Origin: a virus
Direction: 5' to 3' (one strand)
Length of the DNA stretch: 64,000 nucleotides
IMG/VR virus record: IMGVR_UViG_3300047678_000160
Location: 1-64,000 of that record
Shown here: positions 21,001 to 24,000 of the stretch, one piece after another
How positions within the stretch are numbered: the first letter of the stretch is position 1
Layout of the letters: each line of letters opens with the position of its first letter
Program-made: the position numbers

Positions 21001-24000
21001 AAGAGTTGATTATTGAAGAAGTAGAGATTCCAAAAAAACTCATACCGTTAGCAAATAAATTGGCGAAAGCATTGGACAAAAGAAGACTTGACATTTTATA
21101 AAAGTTCGAACACCATCATTCTATGAAAACTAGCAACATACACACAGACCGTATCAACGCGGGCAACCCATCGGGAGGCTCTTTTAGCGTTTGGGGGAGT
21201 CTTTGAGGCTCGTGGTGTTCTTGTTGAAGTAATTTCAGGAGAAGGTGGAGACGATTCTAAGTTGTTCGCTGAACAACTTTTTACAGCCTATTTGGCTTAC
21301 ATGGATAGAAATGGTCTTGAGGCTGAATTGGAAGAAACTGGGCCGACCAAGTATAGTTTCGTGTGTGAAGATTTAAAGGCAGAATCTCTGTTTGAAGGAG
21401 AATCTGGATGTCACTGTGTTCAACGTATTCCAAAGAACGACAGAGGAGGGCGCAAACACACTTCTTATGTAGCTGTAGTTGTTACTAGACTTCACTCTCA
21501 AAATACAGACATGAAAGAAACTGACTTGGAAGAGTCGTTTCAGAGAGGACATGGTAATGGTGGACAACACCAAAACAAAACCTCTAGTGCTGTTCGATTA
21601 AAGCACAAGCCAAGTGGACTTGATGTATTCATAAATGGACGAAGCCAACAGAGCAATAGACGAATTGCTCGCATTTGTTTGGCCGGCAAATTGTCTGAAC
21701 TTGTAAAGAATGGTAAAAGTCAATCGACCTTCGCCGGGGCTGGCCGAGGTGATAAAATAAGAACTTACAATTTAGCTGACCATAGAATTACCGACCACCA
21801 AACGGGAGCGAAGTGTCATATGCCGGATTCCATTATGAAATCGGGAAGGTTTGAATTACTCAAGTAATTTTTGTATTTATAGATTTCAACTTATATTTAT
21901 AGGTGACATGAATAAGGCCTATCTAAGAAAATTGATTTGTGAAATTGTTGAGGAATCTCTTCCAAAAAGAGAGACGCTTCCACCAGACATTTTAGACCTT
22001 CTTGAAGATTTGAAACAGAAGATGTGGAAGCGAGGAATTCCTTCGGCACATCAAGAAGCAATCTTGGCAAGCTTATCTCATTCATTGTTGAAAGGTGGTT
22101 GGAAGAAATCACTACAACAAGAATGTGACCCATGTGGATGTGGCGACCCAACTGATAATCACGTAGATGAATTGGGTGGAATGGTTACTGGATTGAAAAA
22201 TCAAGTTCATGAAAGAAAAACAGCTCCACTTGAATCCGAAGAAATTTTCTCTATTCATGGAATCGATGGGTTTGACATTAACGTTTTGACCGAATTTAGT
22301 ATCTATCATGGAACTGGCGCGGCGGACGACCCAACGGAGGTCATTATCAATTCCATCGTATCACAAAATGATTTCATGGAAGCTGATTTGACCAATCCGA
22401 CCGCAGAAGAAACTAAGGTCATTCAAGCAGTTAAATTGGGAGTAAAATTACTCAATCCATCGGTTAAAGAAGGAATTTTGGTTCCAACGGGCACGGACAT
22501 GATTCTTCTCAACAAGAAAATGAGAAACTATCTACAAACCGATATTCACGCTCTCCAAGAATCTCTATACGAGAAATACGCTAGATACCATTAACATGAA
22601 AAAGCAGAATTCTTCCAATTCAAAAACATTTTGGATGATATTCTCTCTACTGTTAACCATCGGTATTTGTTTTGAGGCTCAGAAAATGGCCAAACTATCA
22701 GAAGAATCTTTGAGATATGAATATGATAATATTCAATTATCCTCTGATTTTAGTCGAGCATATGCTGATGTATTGTTTAAAAACTATCTTCTTACCGAAG
22801 AAATATTAAGATTGGACGCGGTGACAAAGAAACAAAGAAGACCCTTTTGATATGAAAGTAAGAACTCCAGATGATATATGTGTAGATTATCTCGAATTGT
22901 ATAGGGATGACCAATATCAACAGTTGAGTGAATTGTTAAAAAAAGAGCCTCCGTCTATCATTGCGACTTTTTGTTACTATGTGGTCAAATACGAGGGTAT
23001 CCATCACCTCGATTTCATACGCAAATTGATTCAGTAATTCAACGTATTGTAGTATTTTTCTATATTTATAGAAAACCTCTCAATCTATGGATTCTACGTC
23101 ACGCGCCAAAAACAAAAATTTCTTGAAAGAAATTATCCTCGAATGTGTAAAAGAAGTATTTGCTGAGAGTATTAAGCCAGCAGATGAACAGGATATTCGT
23201 GGCGTATTGGGATTTCCATTTGATAAATACATTGTTCCGCTCAGCATCAAGGTTGATGACCACGACGCAGCAGGTAAGCAGAAGGCTGATTACACTTATA
23301 GTTGGAAATTAAGAATTCCTGTCGATGACCCAGAACTGTTATCAAATCTAACAGAAGACCAAGAAACATTTGAGGAAAAATTAATCGAAACAATCACAGA
23401 AAAACTTCGTTCGCCAGCATCTCTTCCCGGCGGACAGTTTACCACAGGATTTGCTGAGGTTGAGAAGAGAGAGACAATCCGTGGAGTAAAACTTTTATTG
23501 GTCAAAGTAGAAATGACCGTAGGATGGAACATATGAAAAAATCAGAACTAAAAGAAGTAATCAAGACTGTTTTGATTCGTAAATTGAATGAAGTGGCTGA
23601 TGTTGTTGATATGAAAGGAAACAAGGTCAAGCCAGAACAATATGGTTTGGTTATTGATAAAAATTCAGACGACCCGATTGTTCAAGTTGTTGGCTACGGT
23701 AAGATGAAATATTCCAATTTGAAATCCGCTATCGAACAGACGGTGGATGTGGTTAAGAAGGAAATAAAGGCAAAGAATTACGACAACGCATTGCATTATA
23801 CAGACCCAAAGGGTATATTGATTTTAATGATGAAGGCTGCACAAGAAATTGAGGGAGAACTTGCCGATGGAGTTAATGAGGTTATGGGCCAAAGTATTTC
23901 TCCTGATGCGGTTGCAGACGCTTTAAGTTCCAGCACACAAAACAATCCAGCAGACCAAAAGAAAGTGATGGATTTGGAAAAACAAAAAAATGATTTACAA

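Follow-up and report, generated by a model that had tools for sequence, protein, structure and literature searches.

Synthesis of a phage release factor (RF) encoded by the uncultivated virus record IMGVR_UViG_3300047678_000160 (IMG/VR) is likely to require a programmed +1 ribosomal frameshift at a CUU-UGA site. The record covers a fragment of 95.7 kb, with a completeness of about 41%, and the window that we analyzed is its first 64,000 nucleotides (nt). The gene is divided between a short leader open reading frame (ORF) in the zero frame, ORF0, and a body in the +1 frame, ORF1, and the end of the cassette that joins them (21193-21207) reads GGGGG-AGT-CTT-TGA-G. This signal is that of bacterial prfB, and it is found here on a factor of RF1 descent.

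The locus has the features of a prfB-type site, namely a short ORF0 with its stop codon, a body in the +1 frame, CUU_U before the stop, and a Shine-Dalgarno (SD)-like run at 3 nt (Table 1). A preliminary description of this DNA had listed the 27-codon ORF, the G-run, the 3-nt spacer, and the CUU-UGA, and all of these are present as described. It had also stated that the +1 frame continues into the conserved helix-5 region, which agrees with the 220 codons of ORF1, their matches to the PCRF and RF-1 domains, and the GEGG motif that they contain. ORF1 starts with EARGVLVEVISGEGGDDSKLFAEQ, and its fusion to ORF0 gives a predicted product of 247 residues. The string GGGG-N3-CTTTGA occurs once in the window when both strands are counted, while 0.17 occurrences are expected from shuffled sequences. 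The GEGG motif is invariant in 30 homologs, and alignments A1 and A3 show no variation at residues G12, E13, G14, G15, and D17. No GTG or TTG start, which the preliminary description had raised as an alternative entry to the body, was found in the RF frame before GEGG: the +1 frame is open from 21127, its first ATG, GTG, or TTG is the TTG at 21262, downstream of the motif, and initiation there would remove the invariant GEGGDDSK. The further claim that the site lies at about the same codon position as in prfB stands for the length of ORF0 only. In protein coordinates, the site, at the beginning of domain 2, precedes GEGG by 11 codons and not by some 109 as in prfB; this distance differs from that of RF2 because the window factor lacks domain 1.

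Table 1 Features of the frameshift-gated release factor locus and associated suppressor transfer RNA (tRNA) genes, in window coordinates unless indicated otherwise
Feature	Position	Strand	Remarks
ORF0, zero-frame leader	21123..21206	+	27 codons, MKTSN...SVWGSL, ends TGA
Internal Shine-Dalgarno-like G-run GGGGG	21193..21197	+	Read from sequence
3-nt spacer, E-site codon AGT (Ser)	21198..21200	+	Read from sequence
Slippery CTT_T, predicted peptidyl-tRNA-Leu shift CUU to UUU	21201..21204	+	CTT at 21201-21203
Gate stop TGA plus +4 base G	21204..21207	+	TGA at 21204-21206, G at 21207
ORF1, +1 frame, release factor body	21205..21867	+	220 codons, GAG 21205 to TAA 21865-21867
GEGG, helix-alpha5 tip motif (GxGGxE in RF1/RF2)	21238..21249	+	Predicted to be accessible via frameshift only
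PKN tripeptide, in place of RF1 PxT / RF2 SPF	21430..21438	+	HMMER alignment
GGQ catalytic motif	21559..21567	+	G119, G120, Q121 invariant in alignment
TTGACA, possible -35 element	21088..21093	+	About 30 nt 5' of leader ATG
Amber-suppressor tRNA (CUA)	48986..49059	+	ARAGORN
Second tRNA-CUA	Genome 91799-91874, beyond the window		ARAGORN

Conservation of the cassette was assessed by scanning viral contigs with an alignment of the family, which yielded 79 loci, and each gene was traced back to its start. Cassettes were gathered by requiring a CTT before the stop (CTT is thus present in 40/40 by selection), and 40 unique CTT-stop cassettes were obtained from 33 distinct homologous loci. The gate stop is TGA in 25 of these, TAG in 11, and TAA in 4. 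The base following the stop (+4) is a C in 28/40 cassettes, a G is found at position -7 in 30/40 and at position -6 in 28/40, and an SD-like motif is present in 27/40, with a spacer of exactly 3 nt in 22/40. Upstream of the shift point, the open stretch of the +1 frame measures just 3-4 codons in five cassettes and no more than 10 codons in 18/42, which pins the shift to CTT_T.

A signal of the GGGG-N3-CTT-TGA type, whose conservation in homologous phage RFs the preliminary description had proposed as a check, is present in close and distant relatives. A set of IMG/VR relatives at 77% identity (L003-L007, L010-L016) has a 26-codon leader ending TGG GGG TCA CTT TGA C, while L089, a metagenome relative at 75% identity, has TGG GGG TCG CTT TGA G; the leaders of L010 and L089 are both 26 codons long and end with WGSL-TGA. 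The cassette is also retained at 62% (L015) and 45% (L001) identity, and the +4 base is a C in L010 and L015. The zero-frame Ser codon before CTT is AGT in the window, TCA in L010, and TCG in L089, the overlapping +1 codon encoding V, H, and R, respectively. As a control, about 60 full-length bacterial RF1 genes from a metagenome scan gave only two chance CTT-stops, in the -1 frame, and a planctomycete RF2 with SPF (L211) was found to have the classical site 109 codons before GxGG. Downstream of the gate, 25-32 synonymous versus 10-12 non-synonymous codon changes were counted in 60 codons; by this measure, the body is under clear purifying selection. A single-protein scan of genome contigs for more DNA of the window's clade returned distant RFs only. 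Judged from these comparisons, the cassette is not due to chance.

The predicted protein matches the C-terminal half of the Pfam domain PCRF (positions 100-194 of 194) and the whole of RF-1, with E-values of 2e-19 and 6e-18. Among sequences in the PDB, the best matches are RF1 proteins (92-116 bits), while RF2 scores at most 77 bits and PrfH 40-43 bits. The NCBIfam models rank in the same order, prfA (141-152 bits, cut-offs 400-423) above prfB (119 bits, cut-off 370), both far below their cut-offs. The prfA match begins at profile position 102-111, and that of prfB likewise near 100, which indicates that domain 1 is absent; the predicted length is 247 residues versus about 360 for a full-length RF1. 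With RF2 as the outgroup, a tree separated RF2 from all other sequences with 100% support in the Shimodaira-Hasegawa-like approximate likelihood ratio test (SH-aLRT) and placed the window factor on the RF1 side. All leader-gated factors formed one clade (SH-aLRT 100%, stem length 1.05) among the RF1 sequences. An AlphaFold2 model (predicted local distance difference test score 86, predicted template modeling score 0.81) gave Foldseek template modeling scores of 0.77-0.83 to closed RF1/RF2 over the whole length. The modeled fold is that of RF domains 2-4, and this structure search cannot separate RF1 from RF2. The NCBIfam PrfH equivalog was matched at 56 bits, well below its cut-off of 167, over residues 106-197 only. 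Taken together, the PDB, NCBIfam, and tree results identify it by sequence as a domain-1-less, RF1-derived class-I release factor.

In the codon-reading loop, HMMER aligns VQRIPKNDRGGRKHTS with VQRVPVTESGGRIHTS of T. maritima RF1, which places PKN opposite PVT. The RF1-type Gln is retained in VQRxP, and the flank D-x-GGR-K-HTS is RF2-like; the SPF motif of RF2 is not present in the window protein. The tripeptide is PPT in most relatives and P-x-N, P-P-S, or P-H-T in the window's clade and a few others, the middle residue of P-x-N being variable within that clade. The preliminary description is supported in holding that a prfB-style +1 cassette gates a phage RF; its suggestion that this RF probably terminates at UGA itself is not supported in that form, as the protein is RF1-like in the PDB, NCBIfam, and tree comparisons. 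Canonical RF1 does not read UGA.

Other members of the family carry variant gates, and gene callers cut these gated genes short or wrongly extend them. In nine loci, two cassettes lie in tandem, 10-22 codons apart; most of these loci have a strong SD before the ATG from which the first cassette is entered. Their first and second stops are TAA then TGA in L001 and L043; TAG then TGA in L018; TGA twice in L028 and L030; TAG twice in L034, L049, and L100; and TAA then TAG in L039. A single in-frame TGA lies within the leader of L017, L047, and L048. In a second subfamily, the ATG lies 9-10 codons before GEGG and the gene is interrupted downstream of the motif, either by CGGAGG-NNN-CTT-TGA-C about 27 codons after GEGG or by one in-frame TGA 26-37 codons after it, inside domain 2. 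In-frame stops after GEGG were seen in L040, L041, L050, L058, L060, L062, L066, L067, L070, L079, and L080 (TGA) and in L037 (TAG). Genetic code 4 was considered for the relatives with in-frame TGA and ruled out, as TGA is a common terminator in them and they read well in code 11. Only L025 and L029 look ungated, with a direct ATG start 8-9 codons before the motif. The same short PPT gene is present in contigs binned with Pirellulaceae or other Planctomycetota (L196-L208; at least 10 species-level bins), which may be chromosomal or binned phage; the gate there is mostly TGT-CTT-TAG-C, the amber mirror of prfB. No clear rule relating the gate stop to the tripeptide, to suppressor tRNAs, or to TAG usage emerged from 11 phage records and the gated loci.

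Two non-CTT shift sites were also observed: GTT TGA A in L026 (around 594) and CGGAGG TCA TTT TAG C in L081 (about 27 codons after GEGG). The third frame within the window's leader holds GGGAGG CTC TTT TAG C (21173-21188), which resembles the TTT-TAG variant of L081; from TGA 21089 to TAG 21185 this frame lacks a start codon, and the string may be what is left of a tandem cassette or may have arisen by chance.

In the mechanism that we propose, based on that established for prfB (PMC5009743, PMC12421855) and on the anatomy of the locus, ribosomes would initiate at AUG 21123 and stall after 27 codons, with the Leu27 codon CUU occupying the P site and UGA the A site. The GGGGG run, 3 nt 5' of CUU, would meanwhile base-pair with the anti-SD sequence of 16S ribosomal RNA. 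A UGA-reading factor, most likely host RF2, would then release a 27-residue peptide, or the peptidyl-tRNA-Leu would slip to UUU, bringing GAG into the A site, and translation of a further 220 codons would yield the 247-residue GGQ factor. The more slowly the infected cell terminates at UGA, the more RF would be made, and the gate would act as a sensor of termination capacity. Given that the protein is RF1-derived and that most PPT relatives have TGA gates, the gate is most simply read as a reporter of host RF2 activity, and UGA termination by host RF2 is most likely what it senses.

Several points weigh against this proposal. The evidence at the locus comes from one metagenomic assembly and from sequence analysis, from which we infer that the shift takes place and that it depends on RF2, as well as what the product does and which stop codons it reads. 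If the product were unable to read UGA, the gate would be a sensor of a host factor without feedback, and its benefit would be less obvious. The +4 base is a G and not the usual C, and TGAG is rare at the ends of this phage's genes (3/30 TGA stops). The leader ATG has no SD, though this is normal for such an SD-poor genome: SD-like motifs precede 12% of starts, versus 10% in the background, and the host probably initiates without SD pairing. In such a host, the stimulatory effect of the G-run may be smaller than in E. coli. Finally, substitutions in the leader favor the +1 frame when the window is compared with L010 (5 synonymous and 2 non-synonymous, versus 1 and 3), and the zero frame, in the opposite direction, when L010 is compared with L089, so that the substitution pattern within the window's small clade leaves the frame read upstream of the gate ambiguous; for the placement of the shift we rely on the open-frame lengths across the family.

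The factor could also regulate itself, a reading that we regard as possible but doubtful. The PKN factor would have RF2-like specificity (UAA/UGA and not UAG), terminate at its own UGA gate, and thereby hold its own level constant, which would suit a phage in which TAG is free for suppression. The replacement of PxT by PKN, the RF2-like flank, and the recurrence of P-x-N with a variable middle residue all fit such a change, as does the fact that the gate stop of bacterial prfB is always one that RF2 reads (PMC12421855). Stop codon usage points the same way: among 93 crude gene calls, 62 end with TAA, 30 with TGA, and 1 with TAG, and in the closest relative (G006) the counts are 53, 13, and 0 of 66, whereas TAG accounts for 11-26% of stops in nine other phages with this RF family. 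The phage therefore looks as if it has nearly freed TAG from its role as a stop. Of the 30 tRNAs that ARAGORN called in the 95.7 kb, two have the anticodon CUA, and Leu-UAG and Leu-CAG are also represented; no opal suppressor, ochre suppressor, or four-base anticodon was found among them. The single gene ending with TAG and the two amber-suppressor tRNAs make a changed codon specificity of the product plausible. On the other side stand the RF1 ancestry and the RF1-type Gln kept in VQRxP. Moreover, most relatives with the canonical PPT still use TGA gates, and a TGA gate does not need a UGA-reading product; in G008, a further phage with PKN, TAG usage is normal (20%), and suppressors with CUA and with UCA are both present. 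A broader version of this idea, which we put forward only tentatively, is that the PxT-to-PxN change and the RF2-like flank have retuned an RF1 scaffold to UAA/UGA, closing a true autoregulatory loop and giving the phage its own two-stop system with UAG left to suppressor tRNAs. Gating at any stop, by single or tandem +1 shifts or by an in-frame stop, would then be a general form of phage RF control.

The remaining explanations dispense with sensing, with the frameshift, or with a functional gene. A fixed attenuator, in which the shift occurs at a roughly constant low efficiency and keeps a potentially toxic RF scarce, would be in line with the tandem cassettes and in-frame stops of relatives, which would strongly lower the yield, and passages of PMC3521657 present excess RF as harmful via miscoding of sense codons. 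We consider it improbable: with a stop codon in the A site, the outcome inherently depends on how much RF is present, attenuation would be achieved more simply by a weak promoter or start, and conservation extends to the stop, the weak +4 context, and the SD spacing. It is very unlikely that the body is translated without any frameshift, whether ribosomes initiate downstream, use a non-canonical start, or reinitiate once they have terminated on an ORF0 acting as an upstream leader peptide. Some relatives, L010 among them, do have a GTG or TTG 5-10 codons before GEGG, and the direct ATG starts of L025 and L029 are compatible with this route; however, the window's RF frame offers no such codon between 21127 and 21262, and the CTT-T-stop, the SD spacing, and the tandem cassettes would be left unexplained. 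We give hardly any credence to a phage tRNA with an enlarged anticodon loop that reads CUUU as a four-base codon. The incompleteness of the record leaves room for such a tRNA, but none is among the 30 called, and a tRNA-driven shift would make the conserved stop and SD run unnecessary. A one-base assembly error, for which the single assembly might speak, or a pseudogene is effectively refuted by conservation: the same interruption recurs with compensating differences in independent assemblies from many samples, and the body downstream of the gate shows purifying selection.

To our knowledge, prfB has for forty years been the one bacterial gene marked by programmed +1 frameshifting at CUU-UGA. 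The mechanism and its autoregulatory character are reviewed in PMC5009743 and PMC12421855, and no such recoding is known for RF1/prfA (PMC5009743, PMC12421855). Atkins et al. mention the giant-virus case alone (PMC5009743), and a 2025 survey of 12,753 genomes considered programmed frameshifting unlikely to regulate RF1 (PMC12421855). The window gene shares with bacterial prfB (AGGGGG-N3-CUU-UGA-C) an ORF0 of about 25 codons, CUU_U, a UGA in the A site, a class-I RF as the product, and a G-run at 3 nt, the distance at which the SD-like run precedes CUU in E. coli (PMC12421855). It differs in that the gated gene is RF1-derived, in that the prfB site lies inside domain 1, about 100 codons further upstream, and in its +4 G; in addition, gates in the family use TGA, TAG, or TAA, are doubled in some members, and are replaced by an in-frame TGA in others. 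The class-I RF of Mimivirus and Megavirus requires one frameshift and one readthrough, according to the passages of Jeudy et al. 2012 that describe it (PMC3521657). It is likewise a viral termination factor whose own messenger RNA is interrupted by stops to be recoded, and some relatives of the window factor also have two serial gates. That factor is of the eRF1 type and belongs to an amoeba virus, whereas the window factor is of the bacterial RF1 type, in a tailed phage, with an SD-stimulated CUU_U as its predicted site. Huge and stop-recoded phages (Al-Shayeb 2020, PMC7162821; Borges preprint 10.1101/2021.08.26.457843) resemble the window phage, with its amber suppressors and many tRNAs, in carrying RF genes, often together with suppressor tRNAs. 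Unlike the stop-recoded phages, the window phage is read well with the standard code, its avoidance of TAG being the exception. The word "frameshift" does not appear in the main text of either work, and their RF passages describe neither an interrupted gene nor a loss of domain 1. PrfH (RF-H) and ArfB are also short bacterial GGQ proteins, and PrfH too is without domain 1; the similarity is weak (43-56 bits for PrfH, and over the GGQ domain only for ArfB), and the window protein, unlike them, retains the full codon-reading superdomain with an RF1-like loop.

No account of a phage factor or RF1-type factor gated by frameshifting turned up in a literature search, which is not proof of absence. 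The presence of the prfB signal on an RF1-type phage factor, whether by convergence or by transfer, and its tandem, three-stop, and in-frame-stop forms are new with respect to that literature. According to the literature, RF1 has no counterpart of the prfB device; here, this device would control an RF1-derived factor carried by phages. The family would offer a natural series of stop-codon sensors in which to test how termination capacity is gauged and then reset in the course of an infection, and the finding connects phage release factors with suppressor tRNAs and stop-codon reassignment.

The phage is T4-like, and its gp19-type tail tube protein is closest to that of Microcystis phage Mel-JY01 (67%), followed by Flavobacterium phages (55%). 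A TAG- or TGA-recoded genetic code was ruled out for the window, as long ORFs cover 88% of it under code 11. Upstream of the leader, a consensus promoter scan called nothing. L010, L089, and L084 share TTGAC(A/T)-N16-17-(C/A)ATACT-N10-ATG directly 5' of the leader, and the window (21040-21122) retains the TTGACA with a poorer -10; this shared motif suggests a promoter that would give a 5' untranslated region of a few bases.

Two observations were made elsewhere in the record. An ORF for PTH2, a peptidyl-tRNA hydrolase (50241-50618 of the window), has an in-frame TAG at codon 7, and with TAG read as a residue, the Pfam PTH2 match runs from residue 13. The tRNA-Lys and tRNA-Asn calls at genome positions 91013-91096, 91158-91249, and 91347-91430 are 84-92 nt long, with long extra arms that are unusual for these identities.

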